Shown one piece after another: positions 14,755 to 63,745 of a DNA stretch of 64,000 bases. This DNA comes from an uncultured Gammaproteobacteria bacterium (GTDB lineage Bacteria; Patescibacteriota; Microgenomatia; Levybacterales; UBA12049). Within the stretch, counting starts at the first letter, position 1, and the number at the start of each line of letters is the position of its first letter. The position numbers were made by a program, and so were the translations under genes. The notes below the pieces were generated by a model. The model searched no databases. It saw only the letters and a program-made list of their open reading frames with translations, and had not been told where the DNA came from. Where the stretch lies: positions 69,235 to 133,234 of the forward strand of contig CAYOZJ010000002.1 of assembly GCA_964408485.1 (NCBI GenBank). Direction: 5' to 3'.

Positions 14755-14760
14755 ACTGGA

Positions 14761-21835: not shown

Positions 21836-22347
21836 AATTATATTATACTATAAGTTTTAAAGTTGTCAATAAGGGAGTAAAAGGAGCTTGTTTATAACTT
21901 GTGTTGCGGGGCTAGGAGTTGCGCCTAGCCTGTGAGATTATGCATCTGTAATCTCTGATTACTCAGAGTGTCGGACTATATCTTCCAGCCAGTGGCTGGT
22001 TCAGCGTATAGTCTCTACGGGTTCTCACCAAGTGGCGAGTCTTCCCTCGGTATTGTCCTCCGTCAACTGACAGATAGGAGTCCACCGATATAGCTGAATT
22101 CAATTCTCATTATTGCTAATAAGATGGCCCATTATGTTAAGCCTCACGTGCACTGTACACTACCCCGCGTATGAGCATAGTATAGCATTATTTCATTGAT
22201 TTAGCCAGCCTCAATTGGTATACTTAGGGTACTTTCTAGTCACCTGAACTTGATTCAGGATCTCATTTTAAGAATGAGATCCTTCGTTTTACTCAGAATG
22301 ACAGGAGAAGATTGCCACGGAACATTCGTTCCTCGCAATGACGATAC
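21836..22347. other. ~500-bp ORF-free, hairpin-rich region (candidate structured RNA and/or repeat array)
   Basis: No ORF of 60 aa or more on either strand. Several perfect hairpins: GGCTAGGAGTTGCGCCTAGCC, CCAGCCAGTGGCTGG, GATTATGCATCTGTAATC, GATCTCATTTTAAGAATGAGATC. The 3' end carries family repeats (CTCAGAATGACAGG, GATTGCCACG...CCTCGCAATGACG) abutting tRNA. Confidence 0.3.
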
Positions 22348-36294: not shown

Positions 36295-37320
36295 TTGTCA
36301 TGGTATACTACAAAGTACATGAAAAAGTTACTTCTGATTGATGGAAATGCCATTTTACACCGTGCATTTCATGCCTATCCACCAGTATTTTCTGACAAAG
36401 AGGGTAATCCTACAAATGCTATTTATGGCTTTTATGCAATGCTTTTAAAAGTTATGGAGGAGGTAAAACCAGATTTACTCACCATTTGCTTTGATCAAGG
36501 TGCGCCGACTTTTCGCATGAATATGTATGCTGGGTATCATGCCAATAGGCCAAAAATGCAGGACACATTGGGAGTACAGGTCGAGCCCTTGCGTGAGTCT
36601 TTGCGTAAAATAGGAATTCCCGTTGAAGCAATCGATGGATATGAAGCAGATGATTTAATTGGGACATTATCTCATCAAGCGTCAAGCGTAAGGCGTAAAG
36701 GGGAAAGTTTGGAAACAATAATCCTAACAGGTGACAGGGATCTTTTGCAGTTAATTAACGAGCATACCAAAGTTCTTATGCCAATAACAGGAATTACGAA
36801 GTCTGTCTTAATGGATGAAGGAGCAGTTGAGGCAAAATACGGCATAAAGGCAAGTCAGGTAATTGATTACAAAGCCTTAGTTGGCGACCCGTCTGATAAC
36901 TATCCAGGTGTTGGGGGAATAGGTCCTAAAACAGCGGCAACACTTCTTAAAGAGTGGGAAACATTGGAGAATTTGTATACCCATTTGGGAGATATAAAAC
37001 CTGAGTTGAGTCAAAAATTAGCTCAAGATGCAGAGCAGGCAATGCTATGCAAGAAGTTGGCAACCATTCAGCTAGACGTACCTGTTCATTTAGATATAAA
37101 GAAAGCAGATGTAGACAATTTTTCTCTGGAAAAGTTTTTGGATATTTTCGAGCACTTCAATATTCACTCATTGGTTAAGAGGCTTAGTCTAGCGCTAGGA
37201 AGTGAAGCACCTATAACACGAAGCGAGACGAAGCAATCTAGTTTAAAGAAAGATTCTGGACAAGCCAGAATGACGAAAGAAGAAAAGAAGAAAGAGGATA
37301 GTCAACTAGAGCTACTTTAG
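36295..37320 (+). CDS. 5'-3' exonuclease (stand-alone Pol I 5'-nuclease/FEN domain) with repeat-derived C-terminal tail
   Basis: LLLIDGNAILHRAFHA and GDRDLLQL, H3TH region. The C-terminal ~40 aa (SETKQSSLKKDSGQARMTKEEKKKED) derive from repeat DNA. Confidence 0.85.
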   Translation: MSWYTTKYMKKLLLIDGNAILHRAFHAYPPVFSDKEGNPTNAIYGFYAMLLKVMEEVKPDLLTICFDQGAPTFRMNMYAGYHANRPKMQDTLGVQVEPLRESLRKIGIPVEAIDGYEADDLIGTLSHQASSVRRKGESLETIILTGDRDLLQLINEHTKVLMPITGITKSVLMDEGAVEAKYGIKASQVIDYKALVGDPSDNYPGVGGIGPKTAATLLKEWETLENLYTHLGDIKPELSQKLAQDAEQAMLCKKLATIQLDVPVHLDIKKADVDNFSLEKFLDIFEHFNIHSLVKRLSLALGSEAPITRSETKQSSLKKDSGQARMTKEEKKKEDSQLELL

Positions 37321-38300: not shown

Positions 38301-38393
38301 AGAAGAAAATTGCTCTATTGCTGAATTACTAAATTGTTCTAGAAAAACAATATAACAATTTAAGAATTTAACAATTAGTATAGTGAGATTGCT

Positions 38394-39101
38394 TCACTTC
38401 GTTCGCAATGACGAATCACTTTTTAACCAGCGGACGCCGAGATACACTAGTGGTGTTTCAATAATAGACATAAAGCAGCGAAGAAGCCAATAGGGAAGAG
38501 CTATGCCTGCAATAAAGGAAATATTTGCTCCAAAGGATACATTGAGGGCCCAGAATGCTAGCGTCATAAAGATTGCTGTATCAAAAAACTCAGAGACAAA
38601 ATTACTTACATTTGTCCTGAGCCAGAGGTTTTTCTTGCCTAATTTTTGCCTCATTTTCGCAAAAATAAATACGTCAGAGAATTCAGAAATCGCAAATGCA
38701 ATAAGGGATGCTGCAGAAAAACGAATGGATATACCAAAGATTGTGTTGTACGCATTATTTGTTGAAAGAAATCTGGTGCTTGGAGGAAGGGAGGTCGCTA
38801 ATATAGAGAAAAGAAGTAAGAAAAAAATCATAAAAAGACTACTTCTGACAATGCTTTGTGCGCGGGCCTTGCCATAGACCTCTACAATAATGTCATTTGC
38901 TGCGTAAATGAATGGCAAAATAAAAATAACAACAGTTGCATTAAGGTGAAATGTACCAAGAGTTGCGATAGGAAATGTTTTAGCACCCATGACTTCGGAA
39001 ATAATTACGCAGGTAATATAAAATGCTGCAAGGAGGTCAAATTTCTGGATATTTATCATGATGTAGAGCATGATACGGGAAGTATATGAGGCTGTCAACA
39101 T
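38394..39101 (-). CDS. YhhQ/DUF165 family queuosine-precursor transporter-like membrane protein
   Basis: Polytopic. PFIYAANDIIVEVYGKARA resembles the YhhQ/VUT family core. The last 10 codons and the stop derive from a repeat element. Confidence 0.5.
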   Translation of the reverse strand: MLTASYTSRIMLYIMINIQKFDLLAAFYITCVIISEVMGAKTFPIATLGTFHLNATVVIFILPFIYAANDIIVEVYGKARAQSIVRSSLFMIFFLLLFSILATSLPPSTRFLSTNNAYNTIFGISIRFSAASLIAFAISEFSDVFIFAKMRQKLGKKNLWLRTNVSNFVSEFFDTAIFMTLAFWALNVSFGANISFIAGIALPYWLLRCFMSIIETPLVYLGVRWLKSDSSLRTK

Positions 39102-39446: not shown

Positions 39447-40727
39447 ATGCCTAGAATAGCCCTGGTTCACGATTATATTAAAGAATACGGTGGAGCGGAA
39501 AGGGTACTAGAGACTTTGCATGAAATGTATCCCAATGCACCTGTATTTACCCTAGTATATTGTCCAAAATTCTTAGGACCACATAAAGATAGATTTAAGA
39601 ATTGGGATATCCGCACATCATTTCTTCAGTCTATCCCTTTTAAAGAAAAATTTATTAGCATCTTTCGGCTTTTTGCCCCATTTATTTTTCCATTTTTCAA
39701 CTTTGCTGGGTACGATGTAATCATTGTAAGCGCAACAGGGGCATATAGTCCCAACGTAGTTGGGACAAGAGGTAAGAAGGAAGAGGTAAGAAGTAAGGAA
39801 AGTGACCATACGCCATACGCCATACGCCATACGCCGTATCACATCTGCTACTGCCACACGCCGCCCAGATATTTGTATGGATACGCAACAGCTAGAGAAC
39901 TAAAAAAGAATTCTCTTATTCGATTATTGGCAGAATGGATGAATAAATGGCTTGTGCGAGTAGACAAAAAGTCCAGTAAAAATGTGGATTTGTATATTGC
40001 CAATTCAGAAGAAGTACGAGCACGAATTAAGAAATTTTATAACAAAGATGCAATTGTTGTGTATCCACCAGTTGATGTTCCTTCAGTGTCATTCCTGCGA
40101 AGGCAGGAATCCAGGAAAGGAACTGGATCCCGGATCGGAGTCCGGGATGACAATTTTTATCTAGCAGGCGGGCGTCTTGCCAGGCCAAAGCATTTCGATT
40201 TAATCATCAAGGTAGCAAATGAATTAAAGTTGTCCCTCAAGATTTTTGGGAAAGGATTTGCAGGGTATGGAGAAGAGCTGTATGATTTGGCAAATAGACT
40301 ACAGCAAGCAGACTACAGTAAAGAAGCTGTAGTCGGTAGTCCGAAAGCTGTAAGCGTTATTACGTTTTTGGGAGAAGTAACAGATGAAGAAAAAATACAT
40401 CTTATGTCCGGTGCTAAAGCATTTATTATGAGTAGTGAAGATGAGGATTTTGGCATAACACCAGTTGAGGCAATGGGGGTTGGGACACCGGTGATTGCAT
40501 ATAAGAGTGGTGGACTTAAAGAAACAGTTATTGATGGCAAGACAGGAGTATTTTTTGACATGTTATCTGCAGAAAGTCTAATTGGGGCAATAAAGAAGTT
40601 TGAAGCCCTTCGACAAGCTCAGGGTAAAAGACTGTCTGAGAATTGTATTGCGCAAGCGCAAAAATTTAGCAAAGAGAACTTTGAAAAAGGAATTCGTTCT
40701 GTCATCTCTAAAATCTTGTCATCCTGA
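39447..40727 (+). CDS. glycosyltransferase family 4 (GT1-fold) with multiple in-frame repeat insertions
   Basis: MPRIALVHDYIKEYGGAERV N-terminus and C-terminal EDFGITPVEAMGVGTPVIA (E-x7-E region). Inserted peptides EEVRSKESDHTPYAIRHTPYH and SFLRRQESRKGTGSRIGVRDD. The stop lies inside a GTCATCCTGAG repeat. Confidence 0.8.
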   Translation: MPRIALVHDYIKEYGGAERVLETLHEMYPNAPVFTLVYCPKFLGPHKDRFKNWDIRTSFLQSIPFKEKFISIFRLFAPFIFPFFNFAGYDVIIVSATGAYSPNVVGTRGKKEEVRSKESDHTPYAIRHTPYHICYCHTPPRYLYGYATARELKKNSLIRLLAEWMNKWLVRVDKKSSKNVDLYIANSEEVRARIKKFYNKDAIVVYPPVDVPSVSFLRRQESRKGTGSRIGVRDDNFYLAGGRLARPKHFDLIIKVANELKLSLKIFGKGFAGYGEELYDLANRLQQADYSKEAVVGSPKAVSVITFLGEVTDEEKIHLMSGAKAFIMSSEDEDFGITPVEAMGVGTPVIAYKSGGLKETVIDGKTGVFFDMLSAESLIGAIKKFEALRQAQGKRLSENCIAQAQKFSKENFEKGIRSVISKILSS

Positions 40728-42776: not shown

Positions 42777-43997
42777 ATGATCCTCAGGTCAATTCTTCTT
42801 CAGCATTTTCGCAATTATACCCAGGAAAAGTTTGATTTTTCAGAAACTCTCACTCTTATTATTGGAGTAAATACTGCCGGTAAAACCAATCTTTCTGAGG
42901 CAATATATTTACTTGCAACAGGGAAGAGTTTTAAGGCAGGTAATGATACATTTATGATTGCTTTTGGACAAGAGATTGCAAGGGTGGGAGGATTGCTGGA
43001 AGATGTCATCCCCGACCAGATCGGGGATCCAGGAAAAGAACTGGATTCCCGCTTTCGCGGGAATGACAGTAAAAAAAAGGATGACGGTTTGGACAAGACT
43101 AAAATAGAAGTAGTTATCGCCAGTCCTCAGGCAACTGGAGGGAGATTTAGCAAGAAATTTCTTATAAATGGTGTTGGAAAATCGCGGAATAGTTTGCGAG
43201 GTATGCTCCCAATTGTCCTTTTCCGGCCTGAAGAATTGGACATTATTATTGATGGACCAAGTCTCAGGCGCGCATTTCTTAATGAAGTACTTGAGCAGGC
43301 AGATAAAGAATATGCCCAAGCATTATCTGTCTTCGAACGGTCTCTTAGGCAGCGCAATGCGCTTCTTCGTATAGCTCAGGAGACTGGAAAACGAAATAGT
43401 GAGCAATTTGATTATTGGGACGAGCTTCTTATTGAGAGTGGGCAGACAATTACACAAAAGCGTGAAGAATTTTTGGTATTTATCAATTCATCCACTCATG
43501 ATATTTTTCCTTTACAGACTTTTTTCGATAAGAGTATTATTTCTCGCGAACGGTTAGATGGATATGAGATGGCAGAAGTCGGGGCAGGGGTGACCCTTGT
43601 AGGGCCTCACAGAGATGATTTCTTTGTGAACATGGAATATCCTGGTTTTAATCCCAACCCTCATCCCAGCTCGCCGAGGCAAGCTGACCTTCTCCCAAAA
43701 GGAGAAGGAGAACAAGGTGATATCCACTACGTGGATATACGATTTTTCGGTTCGAGGGGGCAGCAGAGACTTGCAGTGCTCCAGTTAAAAATGCTCCAAA
43801 TACAGTATTTGGAAAAGAAACTAGGAGTATTGCCACTTCTTATCTTGGATGATATTTTTTCTGAATTAGATAGTAACCATATTCAGCTTGTTTTGGATAA
43901 CGTGAAAGGATGCCAAATCATTCTAACCACAACGCATAGGGAGTTTATTCCACAAAAGGTATTACGTGAGGCTAGTGTGGTAGAATTAGAGCGATAA
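42777..43997 (+). CDS. recF: DNA replication and repair protein RecF with in-frame palindromic-element insertions
   Basis: MILRSILLQHFRNY, Walker A GVNTAGKTNLSEAIY and C-terminal LILDDIFSELD. Inserted VIPDQIGDPGKELDSRFRGNDSKKKDDG. Confidence 0.85.
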   Translation: MILRSILLQHFRNYTQEKFDFSETLTLIIGVNTAGKTNLSEAIYLLATGKSFKAGNDTFMIAFGQEIARVGGLLEDVIPDQIGDPGKELDSRFRGNDSKKKDDGLDKTKIEVVIASPQATGGRFSKKFLINGVGKSRNSLRGMLPIVLFRPEELDIIIDGPSLRRAFLNEVLEQADKEYAQALSVFERSLRQRNALLRIAQETGKRNSEQFDYWDELLIESGQTITQKREEFLVFINSSTHDIFPLQTFFDKSIISRERLDGYEMAEVGAGVTLVGPHRDDFFVNMEYPGFNPNPHPSSPRQADLLPKGEGEQGDIHYVDIRFFGSRGQQRLAVLQLKMLQIQYLEKKLGVLPLLILDDIFSELDSNHIQLVLDNVKGCQIILTTTHREFIPQKVLREASVVELER

Positions 43998-44093: not shown

Positions 44094-44972
44094 ATGCAAC
44101 AATTTGACATAAAACAACTGAAACAGCTTTACATTCCACCAGCTGGATCTCATAAAGGGGACAATGGAAAGGTTATGGTTATTGGCGGAAGTCAGCTTTT
44201 TCATGCTGCATCACTTTGGTCTTTGGAAATTGCATCAAAAATTGTAGATATGGTTTTTTACTCATCAGTTGATGCAAACAATGCACTCGTTGAAAAAGAA
44301 AAGGAAGCATTTAGAAATGGGATTATTGTTCCAAGAAATAAAATTGAAGATTACATTGCAGAGGCAGATAGCGTACTTATTGGGCCAGGATTACCAAGAG
44401 AGAATGGCTACGAGGCAGGCGATGACGATACAAAAATTCTCACCGAAAAACTTCTTAAAAAATATCCCAATAAGCGATGGGTAATTGATGGTGGTAGTTT
44501 GCAGGTGATTAACCCTGACCTTATTCCACAAAATGCTATTCTTACGCCACATCATCAAGAATTTGAAAGACTGTTTGGAAAGCGTCAAGCGTCAAGCGTC
44601 AAGCGTAAAGGAGAGAAAGAGATTGCCGCGGTCGCTAAAGACTCCCTCGCAATGACGGTTGGGGAGATGGCAAAGAAATATCACTGTATTGTTTTACTGA
44701 AAGGTCCAGAAGATGTTGTTTGTTCGGAAAATGAATGTGTAAGAGTTCCGGGAGGTAATGCAGGTATGACAAAAGGTGGAACAGGAGATGTGCTTGCAGG
44801 GCTTACAGCAGCTTTATATTCCCAAAACGCTGACGCATTCTTAGTAGCAACTTCTGCAAGCTATATCAATAAAAAAACAGGTGAGTCTCTTTTTGAAAAA
44901 CAAGGCTATTACTTTAACTCAAGTGATTTAGTGAAGGAAATCCCAGGAGTCATGAAAGAATTACTGCTCTAA
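44094..44972 (+). CDS. ADP-dependent NAD(P)H-hydrate dehydratase / YjeF C-terminal carbohydrate-kinase-like domain protein
   Basis: GDNGKVMVIGGSQLFHAASL and GGTGDVLAG. Carries the insertion KRQASSVKRKGEKEIAAVAKDSLAMTVGE. Confidence 0.75.
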   Translation: MQQFDIKQLKQLYIPPAGSHKGDNGKVMVIGGSQLFHAASLWSLEIASKIVDMVFYSSVDANNALVEKEKEAFRNGIIVPRNKIEDYIAEADSVLIGPGLPRENGYEAGDDDTKILTEKLLKKYPNKRWVIDGGSLQVINPDLIPQNAILTPHHQEFERLFGKRQASSVKRKGEKEIAAVAKDSLAMTVGEMAKKYHCIVLLKGPEDVVCSENECVRVPGGNAGMTKGGTGDVLAGLTAALYSQNADAFLVATSASYINKKTGESLFEKQGYYFNSSDLVKEIPGVMKELLL

Positions 44973-45354: not shown

Positions 45355-46407
45355 ATGTATACCCCAACCTACACAATAAGCAATACAATCCTTCGTAATA
45401 TTGGTCTTATTGAGGCTGCAAAACAGGTAATTGATAGCGCTCCACTTCTTCCGTACTATGAAAAGAAATTTCGCGACGATGCTATGGTAAGAGCTGTCCA
45501 TTATGGCACGCATATTGAAGGAAACGAACTGTCACTCAATCAGGCAGAAAAAGTTTTGTCTGGTCAGATTGTTGACGCACGCGACCGAGATATTCAAGAG
45601 GTCTTAAATTATCGAAAGGTTATGGAGATGATCGGTTCATCGGAAATCGGGAATCGGGAATCGGGAATTGACGAAGAACTTATTTTTAAACTCCATAAGC
45701 TTACAGTCACTAAAGTTTTACCCGAAGAGCAGTCTGGTAATTATCGAAAAACAAAGGTAGTTATTCGCAATAGCCGCAGTGCAGAAGTAGTATTTACGCC
45801 GCCTTCTCCTGAGGAAGTAGCTGGACAAATGAGTGATTTTATTGCATTTATACAAACTCAGTCAGGTCAAGATATTCATCCAATATTGAAATCTGGAATT
45901 GTTCATTATGAATTCGTGAGAATTCATCCGTTTGTCGATGGAAATGGTCGGGTAGCACGGGCACTCTCGACTCTTATTCTTTTTTTGGAAGGGTATGACA
46001 TTCGACAGTTTTTCTCTTTGGAAGAATACTTTGATAAAGATGCTCTCAGCTATTACGAGGCACTGCAAAGTGTTGGGAAAAATAATGGAGACGTGACAAA
46101 TTGGCTTGAGTATTTTACTCATGGTCTTGCCTATGAGTTGGGAAGAATCCGGGAAAGAGTAGAGCATGTATCTGTAGATAATAGGCTTAAGCAGCGACTT
46201 GGTGGCAAGCCAATGATGCTGACAGACAGGCAGTTGAGGATTGTTGAATATATTCAAGAAACAGGTTTTCTGCAAAATCAAGCATTTAAAGAATTATTTC
46301 CAATGATTTCTGAAGACGCAGTGCTTTTGGATTTAAAAGAACTAGTTAAAGCTGGTCTTATTAAGAAATCAGGTGTCACTAAGGGCGCAAGGTATGTGAT
46401 GAGCTAA
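45355..46407 (+). CDS. Fic family protein (AMPylase-type) with C-terminal wHTH
   Basis: Fic motif HPFVDGNGRVARAL. Contains inserted IGNRESGI repeats from GAATCGG heptamers. Confidence 0.85.
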   Translation: MYTPTYTISNTILRNIGLIEAAKQVIDSAPLLPYYEKKFRDDAMVRAVHYGTHIEGNELSLNQAEKVLSGQIVDARDRDIQEVLNYRKVMEMIGSSEIGNRESGIDEELIFKLHKLTVTKVLPEEQSGNYRKTKVVIRNSRSAEVVFTPPSPEEVAGQMSDFIAFIQTQSGQDIHPILKSGIVHYEFVRIHPFVDGNGRVARALSTLILFLEGYDIRQFFSLEEYFDKDALSYYEALQSVGKNNGDVTNWLEYFTHGLAYELGRIRERVEHVSVDNRLKQRLGGKPMMLTDRQLRIVEYIQETGFLQNQAFKELFPMISEDAVLLDLKELVKAGLIKKSGVTKGARYVMS

Positions 46408-46450: not shown

Positions 46451-47302
46451 ATGACAAATGGACCAGTACCCGAAGCAAATAGAGGAAAAGAGGCTGCAAG
46501 AAGCTCAACAAGAATTCATTTTGGTTTCCAAGGAGAGCAGACTCCATTTGCAGATCCTCGAATAAATGCACATCAATTAAGAATACTTGGTAATGGAGTA
46601 ACAGGATTCATGAATAAATGTGTCCAAGATGGGATTACAACTGCAGTCTTTTTTGACACAAAGTCCCGTCCAGCTGCCCTTATTTTTAGAGATGTCTGGA
46701 GAAAGACATTGGGAAAACAAGGAATTCCCATGCCAAAAATACGCTTTGTTAATAATGGGAGAAGGGAAATGGATCCTGATGGAGATGCAGCAAATGCTGC
46801 AAGAGTAAAAGAAGCTCCACAAGTACTACCTAAGCGATTTGGAACATTAGCAGACGAACGTGTTTGCCTTGTCGATGACACTTCTGTTTCAGGACAAACA
46901 ATGCGAAATGGTAAGGCAGCATTTGATGCGGCATTTCCTCAAGCTGAGCAGATTTCGCAGCACATCCTCTTTACAGGACTGCCATTTTGGGATTCTAATG
47001 GAACAAATGATCCTGACTCTCTTGGAGTTGGAAGACTATTTCATGCCTCTTATGAAGAGGGCAAACCAAGCGTGAGTGATTGGACAGCAGCATCCTTTCT
47101 TAAACGTCTTGATCAGGCTCGGAAGAACACAATACCAGAAGATACATATGTTGAAGGAGACCCAACAGGTCCCATTAGTGCTCAGCAACATCGTGAGCTT
47201 CGTGCGGCAACTCTACAGCGTATGAGAGCGCTGAGAAGTCAGTTGCACGATGTATCAGATGTAATTGTTGCAAATTCTCAAATAATTACACCCCATAAGT
47301 GA
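46451..47302 (+). CDS. phosphoribosyltransferase (type I PRTase)-like domain protein
   Basis: RVCLVDDTSVSGQTM matches the PRPP-binding motif. The rest of the protein is unrecognised. Confidence 0.45.
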   Translation: MTNGPVPEANRGKEAARSSTRIHFGFQGEQTPFADPRINAHQLRILGNGVTGFMNKCVQDGITTAVFFDTKSRPAALIFRDVWRKTLGKQGIPMPKIRFVNNGRREMDPDGDAANAARVKEAPQVLPKRFGTLADERVCLVDDTSVSGQTMRNGKAAFDAAFPQAEQISQHILFTGLPFWDSNGTNDPDSLGVGRLFHASYEEGKPSVSDWTAASFLKRLDQARKNTIPEDTYVEGDPTGPISAQQHRELRAATLQRMRALRSQLHDVSDVIVANSQIITPHK

Positions 47303-47424
47303 GTGTGCTCTAATGAAAAGACACAGCAAATGTGCTAGGATTGGTCTATGACTTTTACTCATTTAGCTTCATTTCTTCATGTAATTAATAGACAAAAATG
47401 GGACAGTAAGGTATACTATAAGTT

Positions 47425-47703
47425 ATGAATACAGATAGATGTAGTTATGGAGGTAGAGCATGCGGACGTGATGGAATTCGTTGTGTTCTTCGCGAAGGAG
47501 TGAAGAGCCAAGGGAAAATGGGGGCTCCAGATGCAAACGACCCAACAGTTGGGGGGCCAAACTGGCCTTCAGAAACATGGGATACCTATACCCGTGATGT
47601 TCAGCAACAGGCAGATACGAGAGGGTGTCGAAAACCAGATGGCGTAAGACGAACAATACAAAGAGTTACGAGTGCAAAAAAGAAGCGAGGAGAGTTTAAA
47701 TAG
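47425..47703 (+). CDS. small hypothetical protein
   Basis: 92 aa, Gly/Arg-rich. Confidence 0.3.
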   Translation: MNTDRCSYGGRACGRDGIRCVLREGVKSQGKMGAPDANDPTVGGPNWPSETWDTYTRDVQQQADTRGCRKPDGVRRTIQRVTSAKKKRGEFK

Positions 47704-47730
47704 AATTTCTTTTCATGATATACTCGTGTT

Positions 47731-49521
47731 ATGACCTTTGCGAAATTAGCCTCGTATTTTGAAAAATTAGAAGCAACTTCCTCCCGTTTAGAGCTTATCC
47801 GTATTCTCTCAGAACTCTTCAAAGAAATAAAAACTCCAGATGAAATAGAAAAGGTATGTTATTTGGTTCAGGGTCGTATTGCGCCATTTTTTGAAGCAAC
47901 AGAAATCGGAATGGCAGAACGGACTGTGGCACAGTCCGTTGCTACAGCATTTAATGTCGAAAAAGAGAAAGTCTTAAAAGAATATAGTAAGCGTGGAGAT
48001 TTAGGGTTGGTTACGTATGAGCTTGCGCAAGAAGTAAGAAGTAAGAATTATGAATCAAGAATAACCATAGATGAGGTGTTTGAAACTTTAATAAAAATAG
48101 CAAAGACTAGTGGGGAAGGAACTGTTGAAAAACGACTAACATTATTAACAGATCTTTTGCAAAAAGTAGACGCACTTTCAGCAAAGTTTCTTGTACGCAT
48201 TCCACTAGGTAATCTTCGTTTGGGAATTGGTGACCCAACTGTTTTAGATGCACTCGCGACAGTAAAATTGGGAGATAAAACCCAGCGACATTATTTAGAA
48301 GATGCATACAATAGGACATCTGACTTAGGACTTATTGCAAAAACTCTTTGGTCAGAAAAAAGCGCAATGAAAGCATTGGGTGCAGTCGAAAAATTAGAAG
48401 TAACAGTTGGTAAGCCAATTCGAAGCGAATTGTGCGAGCGTCTTCCTAGTCCTGAAAAAACAATAGAAAAAATGGGGACAGTGGATTCACAGTTTAAATA
48501 CGATGGATTTCGCGTACAAATTCATAAAAATGGAAATGAAATCTCGCTTTTTTCTCGTAATTTAGAAAATATGACCCATATGTTTCCAGAGCTTATAGAG
48601 GGAGCCAAGAGACAAATTAAAGCGCGTAGCGCAATTCTGGATAGCGAAGCATTAGCATACATACCTGAGTCTGAAGAATTTTTGCCTTTCCAGGAGACAA
48701 CAAAACGAAGACGTAAGCATAATATAGAAGAAACAATGGCCAAGCTTCCACTTAAGTCATTTGTTTTTGACATTTTGTATAAAGATGGCAAGTCACTTAT
48801 TGGCGAACCTTTAGAAAAGCGTTTGGAGATTTTGTCAAAAACCCTTCGGCCAGCTCAGGGCAAGCAGTTTAACGATAGTGTTCTTTTTCCAGCAGATACT
48901 AAAAAGATTTCTGATGCAAAGGTGTTATCTCTTATGCTTGATGACGCAATTTCTAAAGGCTTAGAGGGAATAGTAGTAAAGAAATTGAATAGTCTTTACG
49001 AAGCAGGCGCGCGCAATTTTAACTGGGTAAAGCTAAAGCGTAACCAGTCTGGTGAGTTAACAGATACGGTTGACTGTGTGATTTTAGGATACATTTTTGG
49101 CAAAGGAAAGCGAACAGCATTTGGCGCAGGAGCATTATTGGTTGGTGTGTATGATAAAGCATCAGATAGCTTTGTAACAGTAAGTAAGATTGGAACAGGA
49201 TTAACTGATGAGGAGTGGAAAAGTATTAAGGAAAGGACAAAAGGATTAGAACTTTCTCATAAGCCAGCTCGGGTGAGCTCTATTATAGAACCAAGTGTTT
49301 GGGTAAAGCCTGAGATTGTTATAGAGGTCTTGGCAGATGAGATTACAAGAAGTCCTATTCATACAGCAGGAGCTACTTTGGAGAACGGAAAAGTCGTTGA
49401 GCCAGGATATGCTCTCAGATTTCCACGGTTAGTTAACTTTCGGGATAAAGATAAAAAATCAGAAGATGCAACGGATGTGAAAGAGTTGATTGAAATGTAT
49501 AAGAGTCAAGGAAAGAAGTAG
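47731..49521 (+). CDS. ATP-dependent DNA ligase
   Basis: Adenylation motif KYDGFRVQIH (KxDG), OB domain. Inserted heptamer-derived QEVRSKNYESRI. Confidence 0.85.
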   Translation: MTFAKLASYFEKLEATSSRLELIRILSELFKEIKTPDEIEKVCYLVQGRIAPFFEATEIGMAERTVAQSVATAFNVEKEKVLKEYSKRGDLGLVTYELAQEVRSKNYESRITIDEVFETLIKIAKTSGEGTVEKRLTLLTDLLQKVDALSAKFLVRIPLGNLRLGIGDPTVLDALATVKLGDKTQRHYLEDAYNRTSDLGLIAKTLWSEKSAMKALGAVEKLEVTVGKPIRSELCERLPSPEKTIEKMGTVDSQFKYDGFRVQIHKNGNEISLFSRNLENMTHMFPELIEGAKRQIKARSAILDSEALAYIPESEEFLPFQETTKRRRKHNIEETMAKLPLKSFVFDILYKDGKSLIGEPLEKRLEILSKTLRPAQGKQFNDSVLFPADTKKISDAKVLSLMLDDAISKGLEGIVVKKLNSLYEAGARNFNWVKLKRNQSGELTDTVDCVILGYIFGKGKRTAFGAGALLVGVYDKASDSFVTVSKIGTGLTDEEWKSIKERTKGLELSHKPARVSSIIEPSVWVKPEIVIEVLADEITRSPIHTAGATLENGKVVEPGYALRFPRLVNFRDKDKKSEDATDVKELIEMYKSQGKK

Positions 49522-49541
49522 ATTTGTAATCTATAGTATAT

Positions 49542-49819
49542 TCTTGCTTATGGTTGATAGGAAATGCGGATTAGATACTACCAAGGATTGCAAAGATTGT
49601 GGGGGACAGTTTGGTGCAGATAGATTGAGAGAGTTACGCGAACGAGAAAAAGATCTTCAAATAGACACAGAAGTTGATACTGATAGTAAAAGAAAAACCA
49701 TAGCAGATATAGGGAGAAGAAAAAGAATGGTTAACGAATGGCTTAGAAATGGGCGATGTCGTGTTGCTACAGGACATATTGCTGATCTCCTTAAAACCTT
49801 AGAAAAACCACAAGTATGA
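49542..49819 (+). CDS. small Cys-containing hypothetical protein
   Basis: MVDRKCGLDTTKDCKDCGG...RNGRCRVATGH. The track ORF 49490..49819 overlaps the ligase end, so ATG 49542 is preferred. Confidence 0.3.
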
Positions 49820-49874
49820 TATGTATCACGATTTTTCTTTCGCTCAATTAATTAGTCTATGTTAGAATAACTTC

Positions 49875-51374
49875 ATGGTTGATGTTGTTGCAGATTTACA
49901 TCTGCATTCTCGTTTCTCCAGAGCGGTTAGTCCTCAAATGACTCCTCCCACAATGGCACAATTTGGAGACCAGAAAGGGATAGATCTTTTGGCAACAGGA
50001 GACTGGACACATCCGGTATGGTTTCGGGAAATCAGCAACTTTCTCACAGAAGCAGAAGAAGGACTGTATAAAATCAAGAATCCAACTCCCCAAAATGAAA
50101 AGACACGATTTCTTCTTTCTGTAGAAATTGCCTCTATTTATTCCCAAGGAGGGAAGGGAAGAAGGATTCACAACTTAGTATTTGTTCCATCCTTCGAAGT
50201 GGCAGCAAAAGTAAATAAAGAGCTGATAAAACGCGGATTTAATTTATCTTCTGACGGGAGGCCAATCATAGGATTTTCCTCAAAGAATTTACTTTCACTT
50301 CTCCTTGAAGTAGATGAGCGGTGTCTTCTTATTCCCGCTCATGTCTGGACGCCATGGTTTGGCATTTACGGACAGATGTCTGGGTTTCAAAGTCTTGCGG
50401 AAGCATTTGAAGAATTAGCACCAAAGATTTATGGAATAGAGACAGGTCTTTCAAGTGATCCGGAGATGAATTGGCAAGTTGATGAGCTAAAGACAAGGTC
50501 AATTCTTAGCTTTTCTGATGCACATTCTCCTGCGAAAATGGGGCGAGAAGCAACGGTTTTTCGCTTGGACAGCTTGTCTTATGAGAATATTCGTCAAGCA
50601 ATAATGGCGCCAAGCCTTCGTTCCGTCATTGCGAGCAAAGCGAAGCAATCTAATATAAATAAGGAGAAGATTGCCACGTCGCAAGCTCCTCGCAATGACA
50701 ATGTTAATAAAGTACTCTACACCATAGAATTTTATCCAGAAGAGGGGAAGTACCATTATTCAGGCCATAGAAATTGCGGAATTACCATGACGCCACAAGA
50801 GCAAGCAGCAGCGCATAATATTTGTCCTGTATGTAAAAGGTCTCTTACCGATGGGGTTATGAGACGTGTTCAGGAACTCGTAGAAAAGGACCCTTCGGCA
50901 TCGGTTCGGCAAGCTCACGACGAGGGCTCAGGGCAAGGTCCCTTTGGAAGTCATACGCCTAATAAAAGTGGCCTTGTCTGGATAACAGACCCTAAAGAAA
51001 ATCGTCCACCATTTGTCAAAATAGTACCGCTCCAGGAAATAATTAGTGAGGCAATTGGGAGTCCTTTTGCAAGCCCGAAGGTAAAAGTAATCTTCGATAT
51101 GCTCTGTAAAGACGGACTCTCTGAATTTAATGTACTCCTTAAATTGCCCTTACCAGATATTGAGCGAATAAGTCTTAGTATTACTTCAAAAGAATTTGCT
51201 GAAAAAATTACTGATGGAATAAAGAAAGTACGTGCAGAGCAAATTGTGATTAAGCCAGGATACGACGGTGTATTTGGGGTAGTAAAGATTTGGAGTGATG
51301 AGAATGACAGTGAAAACCCTTCGACTTCGCTCAGGGAAAAAGATACTGAAGAGCAGATTGGATTAGAGTTTTAG
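49875..51374 (+). CDS. Endonuclease Q (EndoQ)-like PHP-domain nuclease with zinc finger
   Basis: DLHLHSRFSRAVSPQMT PHP N-terminus, LIPAHVWTPWFGIYG, SFSDAHSPAKMGREAT, KYHYSGHRNCGI and CPVCKRSL zinc finger, RPPFVKIVPLQEII. All are collinear with archaeal EndoQ as I recall it. Confidence 0.7.
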   Translation: MVDVVADLHLHSRFSRAVSPQMTPPTMAQFGDQKGIDLLATGDWTHPVWFREISNFLTEAEEGLYKIKNPTPQNEKTRFLLSVEIASIYSQGGKGRRIHNLVFVPSFEVAAKVNKELIKRGFNLSSDGRPIIGFSSKNLLSLLLEVDERCLLIPAHVWTPWFGIYGQMSGFQSLAEAFEELAPKIYGIETGLSSDPEMNWQVDELKTRSILSFSDAHSPAKMGREATVFRLDSLSYENIRQAIMAPSLRSVIASKAKQSNINKEKIATSQAPRNDNVNKVLYTIEFYPEEGKYHYSGHRNCGITMTPQEQAAAHNICPVCKRSLTDGVMRRVQELVEKDPSASVRQAHDEGSGQGPFGSHTPNKSGLVWITDPKENRPPFVKIVPLQEIISEAIGSPFASPKVKVIFDMLCKDGLSEFNVLLKLPLPDIERISLSITSKEFAEKITDGIKKVRAEQIVIKPGYDGVFGVVKIWSDENDSENPSTSLREKDTEEQIGLEF

Positions 51375-51512
51375 GCTTCTTGACTTTTGATTGCAAATTT
51401 CTCCATACTAAATATGTAGTAAGTATTAGGTATTACGTATTAAGTATATTAAGGAACTTTATTTATACATACTACTTACTACTTAATACAAAACGGGAGG
51501 GGGGTGAAATAT

Positions 51513-51950
51513 ATGGCACAAAGTAAAAATTGGCAAGATATGATGGAAGAATGGTTTGGCAAATTGCCAATGCTTCCAAAAGGAGGACGGGATGTCTTGG
51601 TAAAAGTTGCTCCATGGGTCGCATTAATTTTTGGAGTCTTAGGTGTTTTGGTTGGCCTTGGAGGACTTGGTTTGTTATCAGTTTTGTCTCCAATGATGCT
51701 TCTTGGATCTGGAATGAGTAATACAGCAGGATCACTTTTGAGTGTTGCTGTTTCTTTAGTAAGTTCAGTATTATTACTGCTTGCTTTCCCAGGTCTTAAA
51801 AAGCGAAAGATGCAAGGATGGAACATGCTTTTCTGGAGTGAAGTTGCAGCATTTGTTTCGTCGTTAGTTGCATTATCTATCGTTGGCGGCGTAATAGGCG
51901 CAGCTATTGGATTTTATCTGTTATATCAGATTAAGAGTTATTACAAGTGA
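51513..51950 (+). CDS. small polytopic membrane protein
   Basis: SD GGGAGGGGGGTGAAATATATG. Gly/Leu-rich TM helices. Confidence 0.5.
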   Translation: MAQSKNWQDMMEEWFGKLPMLPKGGRDVLVKVAPWVALIFGVLGVLVGLGGLGLLSVLSPMMLLGSGMSNTAGSLLSVAVSLVSSVLLLLAFPGLKKRKMQGWNMLFWSEVAAFVSSLVALSIVGGVIGAAIGFYLLYQIKSYYK

Positions 51951-52002
51951 TTTGTTTATAAACAAATAAAAAAAGGATACGGTGAAAACCTGTGTCCTTT
52001 TT

Positions 52003-52235
52003 TGTCATTTCGAACAAAGCGAGAAATCTCATTCAAGTATTTTTCTTCTTCTGTACTTTTGTGCCGACAAAAGATACCAAAAACTCTCGCCAAGGTCTTG
52101 TTCGAGCTTTCAAAAAAGAGCTCCAAAGCTAAAAGTACGCAGTTCGCTTTCACTTTCTTTACGCTTTTATGCCCTTTTTCTTATGCACTCACTGCAAATT
52201 GGCGAATAAGAACCATTTACATGAGGAGTATAATA
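52003..52235 (+). repeat. ~200-bp dispersed repeat copy A (upstream of pth)
   Basis: Near-identical core to 63530..63745 (..CTCTCGCCA.G..CTTGTT..AGCTTTCAAAAAAGAGCT.CAAAGCTAAAAGTACGCAGTTCGCTTTCACTTTCTT.ACGCTTTT..). Confidence 0.7.
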
Positions 52236-52241
52236 AGACAT

Positions 52242-52856
52242 ATGAAATTAATAGTGGGACTCGGTAATCCAGGCGAAAAGTATGAGAAAACAAGACATAA
52301 CATAGGATTTATGGCATTGGATAGTTTCCTCAAAGATTTTGAGTCTACAAAAGATACGGTTTGGACAGATAGTAAAAAATTCAAATCAGATATTGCAGAA
52401 ATTGCGTGGCAACGACAAACTGATGGTGACAAATCTCATGACCCTGAAAAAGTTATTTTAGCCAAGCCTAAAACATATATGAATGATTCAGGTCTAGCTG
52501 TTAAATTACTGATAGATTTTTACAAGGTACAGCCAGAAGATCTGTGGATACTGCATGACGATGTGGATTTTCCTGCAGGATCTATGCGAATTCGATTAGG
52601 AGGAGCATCAGCAGGGCACAGAGGGATCATGTCTATTATTGAGCATTTGGGTACAGACCAATTTTATCGCTTTCGCTTAGGCATTGGGAGGCCGGGGGAA
52701 AGTGAACACAGTGGAGTAAGTCATTATGTACTGGATACCTTTAACCATGAAGACCACAGTAATGTAAGGGAACTTCTTAAGCGGACAAGCAAGGCTATTG
52801 AGCTAGGACTAGAAAAAGATTTAACCGCTGCAATGAACAAATATAACTCCAAATAG
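52242..52856 (+). CDS. pth: peptidyl-tRNA hydrolase
   Basis: MKLIVGLGNPGEKYEKTRHNIGF N-terminus. The track ORF extends upstream through the repeat, so 52242 is preferred. Confidence 0.85.
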   Translation: MKLIVGLGNPGEKYEKTRHNIGFMALDSFLKDFESTKDTVWTDSKKFKSDIAEIAWQRQTDGDKSHDPEKVILAKPKTYMNDSGLAVKLLIDFYKVQPEDLWILHDDVDFPAGSMRIRLGGASAGHRGIMSIIEHLGTDQFYRFRLGIGRPGESEHSGVSHYVLDTFNHEDHSNVRELLKRTSKAIELGLEKDLTAAMNKYNSK

Positions 52857-55304: not shown

Positions 55305-56459
55305 TCAAATCCTCTTAATAATCCTGGAGACAAAATACGCCCCTAGGATTGTTGCTATTGGGACTGAGAGCATAAGGCCAATACTTCCGGCAAGTGTACG
55401 CACAATTTCCTCCCCAAATTGCTGATTATTAATAATTACCCACAGTGGTAAATGGCTGGGGTTAAGAAGTAAGAAGATAAAAATAGGAAGAGAAGTGCCT
55501 GCATATGCCAGGACTAGTGTATTAATGAGTGAGGCAATATGCTCTTTGCCAATATTCATGCCATGCTCAATAAGGTGTAAAAATGATTGATCTTTATTTG
55601 CTTTAAAAAGGGCAAAAATGCTAGCAACTTGGGTGGTGGTAATGTCATTAAGTGCACCTAATGTACCAATAATAATGCCACCAAGGAGGATTCCTTGCGG
55701 GTTAATACTTATATTTGGTGCAATCTCCAGCAAATAACTGTCTTCTGTGCCAAGGCCTGTTAGGTGAGCAATATTTACAAATAAAACAGACAAGAAATAG
55801 GTTGCAATAAGCGCAAGAAAAGTAGATGCAACAGCAATGGTCGTTTGCTTGGAAAAGCCGTGGGCAAGAAATGTTGTGACAAATAAAATAACAAATGATC
55901 CAAGAAGAGAAGTGGTGAGAGGGTCTGCGTTGTGGAAAAGAATTTGCGGAACAATGTAGCCAATAATAACAAAAAGACTTACTCCAAGGCCAAGGAGTGC
56001 CCCAAGCCCCTTCTTACCGGCAATAAGAAAGATACAGAGAGCAAAGGCAATAAAAAGGCCAATAAGTTCTGGAATTCGGTAAACATCGGTAATAGTGTAG
56101 CGGGTTTGTCCATCAGGTCCGACATTTTTATCTACAACAACTGTTTGACCGTCGTGATATTTAACAAACGCAGCAAGTCTTGCATCAGAGCCTTGATCGA
56201 GAGTAATCTCTTTACCGTTGTCAGCTCCATCTAAAATTTTCAGTCGCAATGTTTGGGTAATAGTTGTGTATCCGCCATCGGTAATAAGCGTAGATTCTTT
56301 TAAAACGCGCTCAACAACTGCTTTTTCATAAATTTCCTTATTGGTCATTGCTTGTCCCGAAGAAGGTGGGGTTTGGGCAAGTGCTTTAGGTGCAGCATAT
56401 GGCAAATAGCATATGGCACATAGGAGGAAACCAAAAAGAAAAGAGAAGACTTGTTTCAT
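55305..56459 (-). CDS. YibE/F family membrane protein
   Basis: Signal/TM N-terminus, then many TM helices. LVLAYAGTSLPIFIFLLLN typical of YibE/F. Confidence 0.6.
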   Translation of the reverse strand: MKQVFSFLFGFLLCAICYLPYAAPKALAQTPPSSGQAMTNKEIYEKAVVERVLKESTLITDGGYTTITQTLRLKILDGADNGKEITLDQGSDARLAAFVKYHDGQTVVVDKNVGPDGQTRYTITDVYRIPELIGLFIAFALCIFLIAGKKGLGALLGLGVSLFVIIGYIVPQILFHNADPLTTSLLGSFVILFVTTFLAHGFSKQTTIAVASTFLALIATYFLSVLFVNIAHLTGLGTEDSYLLEIAPNISINPQGILLGGIIIGTLGALNDITTTQVASIFALFKANKDQSFLHLIEHGMNIGKEHIASLINTLVLAYAGTSLPIFIFLLLNPSHLPLWVIINNQQFGEEIVRTLAGSIGLMLSVPIATILGAYFVSRIIKRI

Positions 56460-57687: not shown

Positions 57688-57817
57688 GTGTCATCCTGAG
57701 CAAGCTAGAGGATATATTCTTTCCCGACTCGGGACTAGGTTCGCAGAACCGTTGCACACGTTCAGAATGACAATAGGACTGGATCCCGGATCGGAGTCCG
57801 GGATGACAAATTAATAT

Positions 57818-63529: not shown

Positions 63530-63745
63530 ATTGTCATTTCGAACAAAATGAGAAATCTTTTCTTTTTAACTTCTCTTGTACCGACAAGAGAAGCAGAAGC
63601 TCTCGCCAGGCCTTGTTCCAGCTTTCAAAAAAGAGCTTCAAAGCTAAAAGTACGCAGTTCGCTTTCACTTTCTTAACGCTTTTCCGCTCTTTTTCTCTCG
63701 CAGTCACAGCGGATTGGCGAATAAAGACCGCGGAAAATTTACCTC
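63530..63745 (+). repeat. ~200-bp dispersed repeat copy B (upstream of partial ORF at 63780)
   Basis: See copy A at 52003..52235. Confidence 0.7.

Follow-up and report, generated by a model that had tools for sequence, protein, structure and literature searches.

Does an ATP-dependent DNA ligase gene followed by a gene for endonuclease Q (EndoQ) form a dedicated repair module, or are the two genes neighbours that have been inherited together? A sequence-only reading of the window (the whole stretch of DNA analysed, 64,000 nucleotides) proposed a compact, archaeal-flavoured nick-and-seal module, with a small Cys-rich open reading frame (ORF) between the pair. Its ORF coordinates are exact, and its gene identities are borne out by Pfam, TIGR and structure matches:

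47731..49521 (+), ATP-dependent DNA ligase, Lig1-type, 596 aa (Pfam, TIGR00574, PDB 2hiv, motif alignment)
49550..49819 (+), orphan ORF, 89 aa from ATG (codon usage; own -10-like box 7 nt upstream)
49875..51374 (+), EndoQ, 499 aa (5zb8 sequence match, fold match, conserved residues)

The downstream gene is a true EndoQ homologue with an intact frame. Pyrococcus furiosus EndoQ (5zb8) matches its product with an E value of 1.7e-40 in three HMMER stretches, which correspond to the PHP, Zn-binding and C-terminal helical domains. The AlphaFold model (pLDDT 88.4, pTM 0.88) retrieves 5zb8 and 7k30 first in Foldseek (E 1e-34, target TM 0.86-0.89); the nearest non-EndoQ PHP protein reaches only E 5e-7 and TM 0.58. 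Both sequence and fold thus match EndoQ best, and not another PHP family. The family model TIGR00375 does match (E 1.6e-36), but at 126.5 bits it stays under the equivalog cutoff of 326.6. The parts of the protein are as follows:

49875..50624 (+), PHP catalytic domain, aa 1-250 (HMMER alignment to 5zb8, conservation, pLDDT mostly >90)
50709..50888 (+), Zn-binding domain, aa 279-338, site H298-C301-C317-C320 (alignment to P. furiosus C249/C252/C268/C271)
50994..51290 (+), C-terminal helical domain, aa 374-472 (third HMMER stretch, to 5zb8 residues 293-382)
51354..51371 (+), C-terminal hexapeptide QIGLEF (resembles the beta-sliding-clamp binding motif)

All residues with known roles in metal binding, the lesion pocket and the wedge (PMC5961232) are present: the metal ligands H9, H11, E84, H99, H156 and D215 together with R129 and H217, the pocket residues T159, E189, G191 and L192, and the wedge W161. 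Loss of PHP metal ligands, which would have spoken against EndoQ, is thus not seen in the alignment. Across the window protein, P. furiosus EndoQ and 80 related loci, the metal, pocket and wedge residues are invariant with two exceptions, H9 (His in 76/82) and W161 (Trp in 76/82). The zinc site keeps three of the P. furiosus cysteines (C301, C317 and C320) but not the first; this position is His in the window and in all 80 related loci (one locus is short there), and Cys in P. furiosus only. P. furiosus K276 pairs with Thr. Because of the His ligand and this Thr, DNA binding may differ in detail. The helical domain is modelled with pLDDT 90-98, and Pfam PF27218 (MJ0043_C) is precomputed on EndoQ homologues.

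The EndoQ tail is disordered in the AlphaFold model and ends in QIGLEF. The pattern Q[ILVMST]x[ILMF]x[FLIMYW] forms the C-terminal end of 95 of 120 EndoQ homologues, and most of the others terminate in QLGLF- or QMSLL-type pentapeptides. A beta-clamp motif at the C-termini of bacterial EndoQ has already been remarked on, and archaeal EndoQ offers a precedent for clamp tethering through PCNA (PMC4858679). With its H-C-C-C zinc site and beta-clamp-like motif, the window protein belongs to a bacterial EndoQ type, and the archaeal label suits it less well than the ligase. Nor is this type restricted to a few bacteria, as had been supposed: it is already named by NCBI and is very common in Patescibacteria, with >8000 protein clusters and at least 600 species loci. 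No description of the Patescibacteria clade was found in the literature searched. EndoQ enzymes of Bacillus pumilus and B. subtilis have been reported active; Desulfovibrio-type homologues are also bacterial.

The ligase is complete in its DNA-binding, adenylation and OB domains. Pfam matches to DNA_ligase_A_N, A_M and A_C have E values of 1e-18 to 1e-53, TIGR00574 scores 422.7 bits (cutoff 217.8), and the top solved structure is the Sulfolobus solfataricus ligase 2hiv (E 1.6e-119). Motifs I-VI are all intact; the motif I lysine is K256 (DNA 48496-48498), and K256/D258/G259/R261, E412/G413/K417, K434/K436 and R563/F564/P565/R566 show no variation in a 15-sequence alignment. The highest scores are to archaeal Lig1-type enzymes, which fits an archaeal flavour for this gene. 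Scores to accessory bacterial families are far lower and fall short of their cutoffs: PRK03180 gives 246 bits (cutoff 641), TIGR04120 151 (cutoff 400) and the LigD models 85-136.

The small ORF exists as described, with four cysteines in 89 aa (C6, C14, C17 and a fourth close to the C-terminus) and a charged middle. A start at the ATG at 49550 is likelier than the longer reading from TTG (49490-49819, 109 aa). Codon-usage log-odds in frame are 0.318, close to the mean for real genes (0.35, sd 0.10), and are negative in the other frames. Among 1.84 billion cluster representatives the ORF matches only itself, and it has no match in Pfam, PADLOC or PHROG. It is not found in the ligase-EndoQ gap of relatives (139 nt in locus L082, 66 nt in L013). 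The ORF is lineage-specific, with coding-like codon usage, and conservation of the pair does not extend to it.

Repeat insertions in both genes, also claimed in the sequence-only reading, are real at four places (48844-48864, 50625-50700, 50895-50945 and 51319-51335). A fifth stretch is listed with them:

48030..48070 (+), repeat-like stretch EVRSKNYESRITI in a variable ligase loop (family D2, 80% identity over 41 nt)
48844..48864 (+), in-frame 7-aa ligase insert (within LRPAQGKQF), copy of the dispersed repeat CTTCG-N4-5-GCTCAGG
50625..50700 (+), in-frame hairpin element GTCATTGCGAG...CTCGCAATGAC, 76 nt, encoding VIASKAKQSNINKEKIATSQAPRNDN, EndoQ aa 251-276
50895..50945 (+), second in-frame EndoQ insert SASVRQAHDEGSGQGPF, repeat-like, 3' of the Zn domain, aa 341-357
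51319..51335 (+), CTTCG-N5-GCTCAGG copy in the disordered EndoQ tail (PSTSLREK)

The hairpin element occupies the hypervariable PHP-Zn linker (pLDDT 55-75) and folds as DNA at -16.6 kcal/mol (z = -3.9). Its end motif CGCAATGAC occurs five times in the window against 0.3 expected, with an inverted repeat partner of the element at 38386-38413 and similar pieces at 22303-22342; the closest EndoQ homologue (P0002) does not have the element. The second EndoQ insert is missing from 21/21 aligned homologues, has pLDDT <50 at residues 343-350, and has 10-12-nt pieces in common with the ligase insert. In the 15-sequence alignment, only the two closest homologues share the latter with the window ligase. 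The dispersed repeat has six copies against none expected. The 48030-48070 stretch bears a weak resemblance to heptamer-type repeats elsewhere in the window; homologues have RIKNHESRI at this loop, whose length in the window does not exceed that in relatives. The EndoQ insert sites are tolerated hot spots, with other inserts there in many homologues, and their low predicted confidence is consistent with loops.

Promoter-like sites are found in front of both repair genes:

47695..47724 (+), ligase promoter-like site: TTTAAA, 18 nt, TG-extended TATACT (consensus scan)
49860..49868 (+), extended -10 box of EndoQ, TGtTAGAAT, ending 6 nt before the ATG

Between the end of the ligase -10 hexamer and the ATG lie 6 nt, a spacing that suggests a leaderless transcript and recurs in 19 of the 46 genes of the window (~3 expected by a rough estimate). 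The EndoQ box keeps its position in most related EndoQ loci, with or without an upstream ligase, and its flanking sequence is conserved with L082. EndoQ is probably transcribed from a promoter of its own, without a leader. Since all three genes, the small ORF included, have a -10 box 6-7 nt before the ATG, co-transcription is not required. A scan of the locus found no terminator between the three genes, which leaves room for read-through.

These features are best explained by two intact, separately transcribed repair genes in a vertically inherited Patescibacteria block (Microgenomates/Levybacteria type), in which EndoQ is functional and clamp-tethered and the ligase is a plausible sealer; this account is probably correct. 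By homology, EndoQ would flip deaminated bases (dU, dI, dX) or abasic sites into its pocket beside the two-zinc PHP site and cleave the phosphodiester bond directly 5' of the lesion to give a nick with 3'-OH and 5'-P ends. The QIGLEF tail probably tethers the enzyme to the beta sliding clamp, by analogy with the PIP box and PCNA in archaeal EndoQ. Ligase reseals an EndoQ nick with the lesion in place (PMC4357722), so a two-step nick-and-seal would be futile; repair also calls for a polymerase and a 5' nuclease. The published route is strand-displacement synthesis, flap/5' nuclease action and then ligation (Pol -> Fen1 -> Lig; PMC4858679). Here, the cut would presumably be followed by synthesis (strand displacement or nick translation) and by excision of the 5' end that bears the lesion, and a ligase would seal last; the adjoining Lig1-type ligase may be that sealer, though not necessarily a dedicated partner. 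The window also has a stand-alone 5'-3' exonuclease gene at 36295-37320, 13 kb upstream, an HhH-GPD gene, and an ExoIII-like gene which the earlier reading did not list. More than 30 contigs (matched on size; some just 4-8 kb) are common to the EndoQ and ligase homologue lists.

A dedicated, co-regulated module, with or without the small ORF, in which the ligase closes EndoQ-initiated repair is unlikely, although part of the gene order speaks for it. The ligase lies upstream of EndoQ and co-oriented in 21/80 related loci, all among the closest relatives and spanning several Microgenomates lineages, with gaps as small as 66-173 nt (L013, L044). No other repair gene family recurs widely beside EndoQ, and no terminator-like site separates the genes. 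Repair is the usual role of accessory ATP-dependent ligases in bacteria. However, the conserved block is larger (Fic-ligase-EndoQ-membrane protein-Pth), and simple inheritance of gene order may account for the linkage; more distant members have 1-4 kb of unrelated genes (glycosyltransferase, transporters) between the two; and no ligase lies within 8 kb of EndoQ in Roizmanbacteria-named, Parcubacteria and Saccharibacteria loci at the same divergence. Together with the religatable nick, the separate -10 boxes and the unconserved small ORF, this weakens the nick-and-seal proposal, and the earlier interpretation as a whole is partly supported. The pair look like neighbours inherited together, not a proven two-gene repair machine.

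It is improbable that these reduced genomes instead took the ligase from archaea to replace NAD-dependent LigA and use it as their main or sole (replicative) enzyme, with the EndoQ adjacency incidental. Its identity among relatives (67-88%, against 50-77% for EndoQ) is as expected of an essential gene and its best scores are to archaeal replicative ligases. LigA is unseen in the window and in 21 ATP-ligase loci, and one Paceibacterota locus without an ATP ligase has it; however, ~1.1 Mb of scattered sequence was covered, so this absence means little. LigA loss in Patescibacteria is not reported in the literature searched. LigA is regarded as universal in bacteria. Very improbable is an EndoQ decaying or altered by its two repeat insertions, or acting in defence against foreign uracil-containing DNA. 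Two in-frame insertions and a tail repeat, an upstream Fic gene matching PADLOC SoFic at 176 bits, and a variable Fic-to-ligase region would suit such a role. Against it, the frame is intact with every catalytic residue kept, the insert sites are the tolerant, low-pLDDT ones described above, neither EndoQ nor the ligase matches a PADLOC or PHROG defence model, and the Fic, ligase and EndoQ genes belong to a stably syntenic core rather than to an island.

The window EndoQ has the same PHP, Zn-binding and C-terminal helical architecture as the P. furiosus and Thermococcus kodakarensis enzymes (5zb8, 7k30; PMC4357722, PMC5961232, PMC4858679) and, at ~25% identity, preserves the metal ligands, R114 and H195 equivalents, lesion pocket and wedge Trp. 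Both types end in a disordered tail with a sliding-clamp motif, which is a PIP box in archaea and the beta-clamp-type QIGLEF here. The archaeal zinc site is C4 whereas that of the window is H-C-C-C; the in-frame repeat inserts are extra in the window protein, and the host has a reduced bacterial genome of mesophile type, whereas the archaeal hosts are hyperthermophiles. Bacillus/Desulfovibrio-type EndoQ shares the bacterial lineage and the C-terminal beta-clamp consensus (PMC4858679), Bacillus being likened by description. Homologues from non-Patescibacteria MAGs share the H-C-C-C site and a QxxLF tail. In Maridesulfovibrio and Bacteroidales, EndoQ homologues are fused to a UvrD helicase, whereas the window EndoQ stands alone.

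The window ligase has full-length DNA-binding, adenylation and OB domains and motifs I-VI in common with Lig1-type ligases (S. solfataricus 2hiv, P. furiosus 2cfm, human LIG1), scoring 403 bits to the S. solfataricus enzyme and 240 bits to human LIG1. Unlike the archaeal and eukaryotic enzymes, it is bacterial, without their PCNA partner, and has a small insert derived from a repeat; a clamp motif was not identified in it. It shares ATP dependence with the accessory bacterial ligases (LigB, LigC, LigD, 'DNA_lig_bact' TIGR04120), which are generally assigned to repair, and neither a Ku nor a polymerase-domain partner is present. The insertions resemble the MITE-like Rickettsia palindromic elements, short palindromes which lie in frame in surface loops of unrelated housekeeping genes and keep the frame; those are ~150 nt long (PMC10969869), whereas the elements here are ~20-76 nt, fall into several families and occur in Patescibacteria.

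The three open reading frames (ORFs) of the ligase-EndoQ region lie exactly where the sequence-only reading had put them, and its gene calls are correct:

47731-49521 (+): ATP-dependent DNA ligase, 596 aa
49490-49819 (+): small ORF, 109 aa if started at a TTG that overlaps the end of the ligase gene; more probably the gene begins with the ATG at 49550 and has 89 aa
49875-51374 (+): Endonuclease Q (EndoQ), 499 aa

G+C content is ~39% across the whole window, which carries ordinary bacterial housekeeping genes (Pth, FtsH, MurD-like, TGT, TrpRS/TyrRS-type, RecF and an RNR). Homologues are overwhelmingly from Patescibacteria; the nearest named ones are Levybacteria/Levyibacteriota. A tRNA-Ile with anticodon TAT is found at 14682-14756. 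An AdoCbl-II riboswitch (8093-8165) follows directly after the class II-like ribonucleotide reductase gene (5568-8024) and also precedes DUF4430 and cobalamin-related genes. The base-excision parts present outnumber those first listed for this DNA:

31907-32686 (-): ExoIII-like nuclease, forming a divergent pair with the next gene
32753-33658 (+): HhH-GPD glycosylase
36295-37320 (+): stand-alone 5'-3' exonuclease

EndoQ of Pyrococcus furiosus (Pfu) is the sole PDB match to the window EndoQ by phmmer (E 1.7e-40). The match falls into three stretches on structure 5zb8, which represent the PHP, Zn-binding and C-terminal helical domains; the third is aligned to residues 293-382 (HMMER). A model made with AlphaFold2 from 97 sequences (pLDDT 88.4, pTM 0.88) finds the EndoQ structures 5zb8 and 7k30 as its best Foldseek matches (E ~1e-34, target TM 0.86-0.89). 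The possibility that another PHP family is the better match was rejected: the next PHP protein reaches E 5e-7 and TM 0.58, against 1e-34 and 0.87 for EndoQ.

Residue roles were taken from the 2018 structure paper (PMC5961232) and mapped onto the window EndoQ through alignments. Conservation was counted over 82 sequences: the window EndoQ, Pfu EndoQ and the best 80 of at least 600 related loci.

Table. Residues of Pfu EndoQ and their counterparts in the window EndoQ
Metal ligands: Pfu H8, H10, E76, H84, H139, D193; window H9, H11, E84, H99, H156, D215
Essential residues: Pfu R114, H195; window R129, H217
Lesion pocket (in Pfu also lined by H139 and D193): Pfu T142, E167, G169, L170; window T159, E189, G191, L192
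Intercalating wedge: Pfu W144; window W161
Main-chain atoms only: Pfu L168, N191; window T190, F213
Zinc site (predicted in the window): Pfu C249, C252, C268, C271; window H298, C301, C317, C320

All of the mapped metal, essential, pocket and wedge residues are present, and all are invariant save H9 (H in 76/82), W161 (W in 76/82) and L192 (L in 80/82). Since the PHP ligands are kept and the best matches by sequence and fold are to EndoQ, the window protein is an EndoQ, as had been claimed. The NCBIfam model suggested for checking this, TIGR00375 (a hypothetical equivalog), does match in three stretches (E 1.6e-36), but the 126.5 bits fall short of its cutoff of 326.6; the protein is thus a divergent relative of TIGR00375 members and not an equivalog by the NCBI threshold. 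Close homologues are nevertheless named 'endonuclease Q family protein' in public NCBI records.

The predicted zinc site keeps all four ligand positions, but not as the four Cys residues of Pfu EndoQ: the first is His298. This His is found in all of the best 80 of at least 600 related loci, and Cys only in Pfu EndoQ. The window EndoQ ends in EEQIGLEF, on a tail that is disordered in the AlphaFold2 model. An end of the form Q[ILVMST]x[ILMF]x[FLIMYW] is shared by 95 of 120 homologues; most of the other 25 end in QLGLF- or QMSLL-type pentapeptides. As a motif, QIGLEF fits the bacterial beta-clamp-binding consensus and not the PIP type. Beta-clamp motifs in bacterial EndoQ homologues have already been remarked by Shiraishi et al. 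(PMC4858679); the tail is therefore a family trait and not a discovery.

The ligase contains DNA-binding, adenylation and OB domains (Pfam PF04675, PF01068 and PF04679) and scores 422.7 bits against TIGR00574 (dnl1 superfamily), above the cutoff of 217.8. It aligns end to end with the Sulfolobus solfataricus ligase structure 2hiv (E 1.6e-119) and also aligns with other archaeal ligases; human LIG1 is a weaker match (240 bits). With models of the common bacterial ATP ligases it reaches much lower scores, all under the cutoffs of those models, so the description of the gene pair as 'archaeal-flavoured' is fair for the ligase. It suits EndoQ less well, whose zinc site, with His first, and beta-clamp-type tail are unlike those of the archaeal enzyme.

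Nucleotidyltransferase motifs I-VI are intact in the ligase and invariant among 15 homologues of 71-88% identity (K256-Y-D258-G259-F-R261, in which K256 is the adenylation lysine of KxDG; E412-G413-x-V-x-K417; W432-x-K434-x-K436; R563-F-P-R566). Family membership suggests that the enzyme uses ATP, not NAD+, and seals nicks. More than 7600 related proteins were found, many of them under the NCBI name 'ATP-dependent DNA ligase [Patescibacteria group bacterium]'. One close homologue, P0192 (930 aa), carries an intein (PF14890) inside its adenylation region. Probing with an approximate E. coli LigA query gave no match in the window or the 21 related EndoQ loci with an ATP ligase, which offer little sequence and too small a sample; one copy was found, in a Paceibacterota locus (L036:5-1078(-)). 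There the NAD-type LigA lies ~7 kb from EndoQ, and no ATP ligase is nearby.

The ligase and EndoQ were proposed to form, with the small Cys-rich ORF between them, a compact nick-and-seal module. A co-oriented ligase homologue does lie upstream of EndoQ in 21 of the best 80 of at least 600 loci (18 of the 54 that extend 6 kb or more upstream), and every one of the 21 is among the closest relatives. More than 30 contig sizes, some of only 4-8 kb, are common to the EndoQ and ligase match lists, so that in the near clade the two genes are as a rule adjacent. The pair is part of a larger conserved unit, Fic-ligase-EndoQ-membrane protein-Pth, and in one related locus (L082) the window gene order is kept over 17 kb, from RecF to 2-hydroxyacid dehydrogenase. 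Ligase and EndoQ may be as little as 66 nt or as much as 4.2 kb apart; in more distant members the gap holds a glycosyltransferase, a transporter and other genes. No ligase was found within 8 kb of similarly diverged EndoQ genes in Roizmanbacteria-named loci, Parcubacteria and Saccharibacteria. The larger block, the variable gap and the EndoQ loci lacking a ligase argue against a tight module; synteny bears out a neighbourhood with a Lig1-type ligase in Microgenomates that is recurrent but loose. Clustering of neighbours within 4.5 kb of EndoQ revealed no other repair gene recurring widely; an MGMT/ATL-like gene is near EndoQ in a few loci.

The conserved Fic gene (45355-46407) scores 176 bits with SoFic, a PADLOC defence model. 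The Fic-ligase stretch varies among relatives; here it contains two ORFs, 46451-47302 and 47425-47703, with coding-like codon usage and no family, the former giving no tblastn match in 80 related loci. PADLOC and PHROGs placed none of EndoQ, the small ORFs and ORF283 among defence or phage proteins, and a defence-island reading of the region was rejected on these grounds.

The small ORF between ligase and EndoQ matches no Pfam, PADLOC or PHROG family. Against 1.84 billion cluster representatives it finds itself only, plus one spurious match at E 6e-4, and it has no tblastn match in 80 related loci. None of the 21 ligase loci has an equivalent small Cys-rich ORF among its intergenic ORFs; spacers of relatives are shorter or contain different genes. 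Its in-frame codon-usage log-odds is 0.318 (gene mean 0.35, sd 0.10; off-frame mean -0.59). The ORF is probably genuine, an orphan gene specific to its lineage, and it lies outside any conserved ligase-EndoQ unit. In an Rfam scan of 47250-52300 no match reached E <= 1; the spacers thus do not correspond to known RNAs.

Transcription signals also bear on the module. An extended -10 box (TGtTAGAAT) precedes EndoQ, its end 6 nt from the ATG, and such a box occurs at the same place in most related EndoQ loci, whether a ligase is upstream or not. The ligase has a TG-TATACT box 6 nt before its start, and the small ORF has TATATT at 7 nt. A single ligase-EndoQ transcription unit would have no internal promoter; with predicted -10 boxes before all three genes, the result is against it. 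Across the window, 19 of 46 genes have a -10-like hexamer, in many cases TG-extended, that ends 5-12 nt ahead of the start codon (e.g. starts 2663, 12271, 23254, 32753, 42777, 47731, 49875, 53003 and 55305-56459(-)), where a rough estimate from base composition gives ~3 of 46. This suggests that leaderless, individually promoted genes are common in this genome and its relatives, which weakens the inference of an operon. A sequence scan detected no terminator-like site between ligase, small ORF and EndoQ, so read-through may still occur.

Both genes were said to carry repeat insertions, and these are real. EndoQ aa 251-276 are encoded by a 76-nt hairpin element, GTCATTGCGAG...CTCGCAATGAC (50625-50700, z = -3.9), which is absent from the closest EndoQ homologue. 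It sits in the PHP-to-Zn linker, where other homologues carry quite different repeat-type peptides. A second EndoQ insert, aa 341-357, is lacking in all 21 aligned homologues and so peculiar to the window; the EndoQ inserts coincide with low-confidence segments of the AlphaFold2 model. Two repeat types, with short and diverged copies, are dispersed in the window:

22303-22342, 38386-38413 (both pieces related to the 76-nt element), 44648-44656, 50625-50700: hairpin elements with GTCATTGCG / CGCAATGAC-type ends (5 in the window, 0.3 expected)
11270-11286 (-), 33273-33288, 40608-40623, 43365-43380, 48844-48859, 51319-51335: CTTCG-N4-5-GCTCAGG (6 copies, 0 expected)

Five copies of the latter are in frame within unrelated genes: the HhH-GPD gene ('PSTGSGKKGSGQARMTD'), a glycosyltransferase ('LRQAQGK'), RecF, the ligase ('LRPAQGK') and the EndoQ tail. 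The ligase copy is a 7-aa insert common to the window and the two nearest relatives. The 76-nt hairpin type was sought by exact pattern in 82 related loci, with no match. Other Patescibacteria EndoQ homologues (P0002-P0120) show different repeat-type peptides (HPDPLLKGEG, SGMT, FDFAQGK, RIKNQE, VIPAKAGIQ and others) at three EndoQ loops (window aa ~68-80, ~250-278 and ~340-357); by sequence comparison, these loops are hot spots of independent in-frame insertions. One hairpin element is directly upstream of tRNA-Met and one is inside a Carb_kinase gene. A separate 35-nt hairpin is present in two copies 97% identical (40122-40156 and 57778-57812), and a 122-nt direct repeat, 87% identical, is found at 52093-52214 and 63608-63729, one of the two lying shortly before the Pth coding sequence.

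The literature treats EndoQ as an archaeal enzyme that has 'a limited number' of homologues in bacteria (PMC5961232, PMC4357722), and the sequence-only reading likewise called it best known from Thermococcales and a few bacteria. This view is out of date: at least 8000 scored protein relatives and, in a scan with one genome per species, at least 600 loci were found. EndoQ is abundant in Patescibacteria (Microgenomates groups, Parcubacteria, Saccharibacteria and Magasanikbacteria), and the best 80 of the at least 600 loci also include metagenome-assembled genomes (MAGs) named Maridesulfovibrio, Thermodesulfobacteriota, Omnitrophota, Planctomycetota and Armatimonadota, as well as some labelled DPANN archaea. 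In a Maridesulfovibrio MAG (L062:8001-11144) and a Bacteroidales MAG (L068), EndoQ is fused to a C-terminal UvrD-type helicase (ORFs of 1047 and 1073 aa); the L068 fusion still ends in a QxxLF-like motif. Our literature search found no paper linking EndoQ with Patescibacteria, nor anything relevant that joined EndoQ or ATP-dependent ligases to Patescibacteria/CPR.

Going by its conserved residues and homology, the window EndoQ would flip dU, dI, dX or an AP site into its pocket and cut immediately 5' of it, leaving 3'-OH and 5'-P ends. Ends of this kind produced by EndoQ are rejoined by T4 ligase (PMC4357722). Because they can be religated, immediate sealing of the nick would restore the damaged strand. 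In the published order, incision is followed by strand-displacement synthesis, flap removal and ligation, all organised on the sliding clamp (PMC4858679). The beta-clamp-like tail would fit such clamp-organised repair in this bacterium; candidates for the pathway in the window may be the stand-alone 5'-3' exonuclease (36295-37320) and the ExoIII-like and HhH-GPD pair. The neighbouring ATP ligase would be a reasonable final enzyme, with nothing that ties it specifically to EndoQ. The proposed nick-and-seal module is thus only partly supported: both genes are intact and neighbouring, but direct sealing that restores the lesion, predicted promoters for each gene and loose synteny weaken the functional reading.

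It is conceivable, if rather improbable, that within one large Microgenomates clade a beta-clamp-tethered EndoQ and an archaeal-type Lig1 are the core of a streamlined alternative-excision repair of deaminated and abasic DNA, replacing or acting alongside the glycosylase-initiated route, with the ATP ligase perhaps as principal ligase. If so, EndoQ would be a major, overlooked bacterial repair enzyme and not an archaeal curiosity. In very small genomes, one enzyme that incises at dU, dI and AP sites could take the place of several glycosylases, and the recurring Lig1-type neighbour offers a concrete pair for biochemistry.

Both proteins belong to known families, public annotation already gives them their names, and the logic of the pathway is that of models in the literature; the advance lies in distribution and detail, not in a new kind of system. 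What is added is the H-C-C-C, beta-clamp-type EndoQ widespread in Patescibacteria, the loose Lig1 neighbourhood in Microgenomates and the in-frame repeats. Archaeal EndoQ has a PCNA-binding PIP box in the place where the window EndoQ has its beta-clamp-type QIGLEF. The more unusual aspect may be the in-frame repeat insertions, which are pervasive in these genes; they resemble Rickettsia palindromic elements (PMC10969869) in being dispersed repeats within coding frames, here with the ORF preserved.
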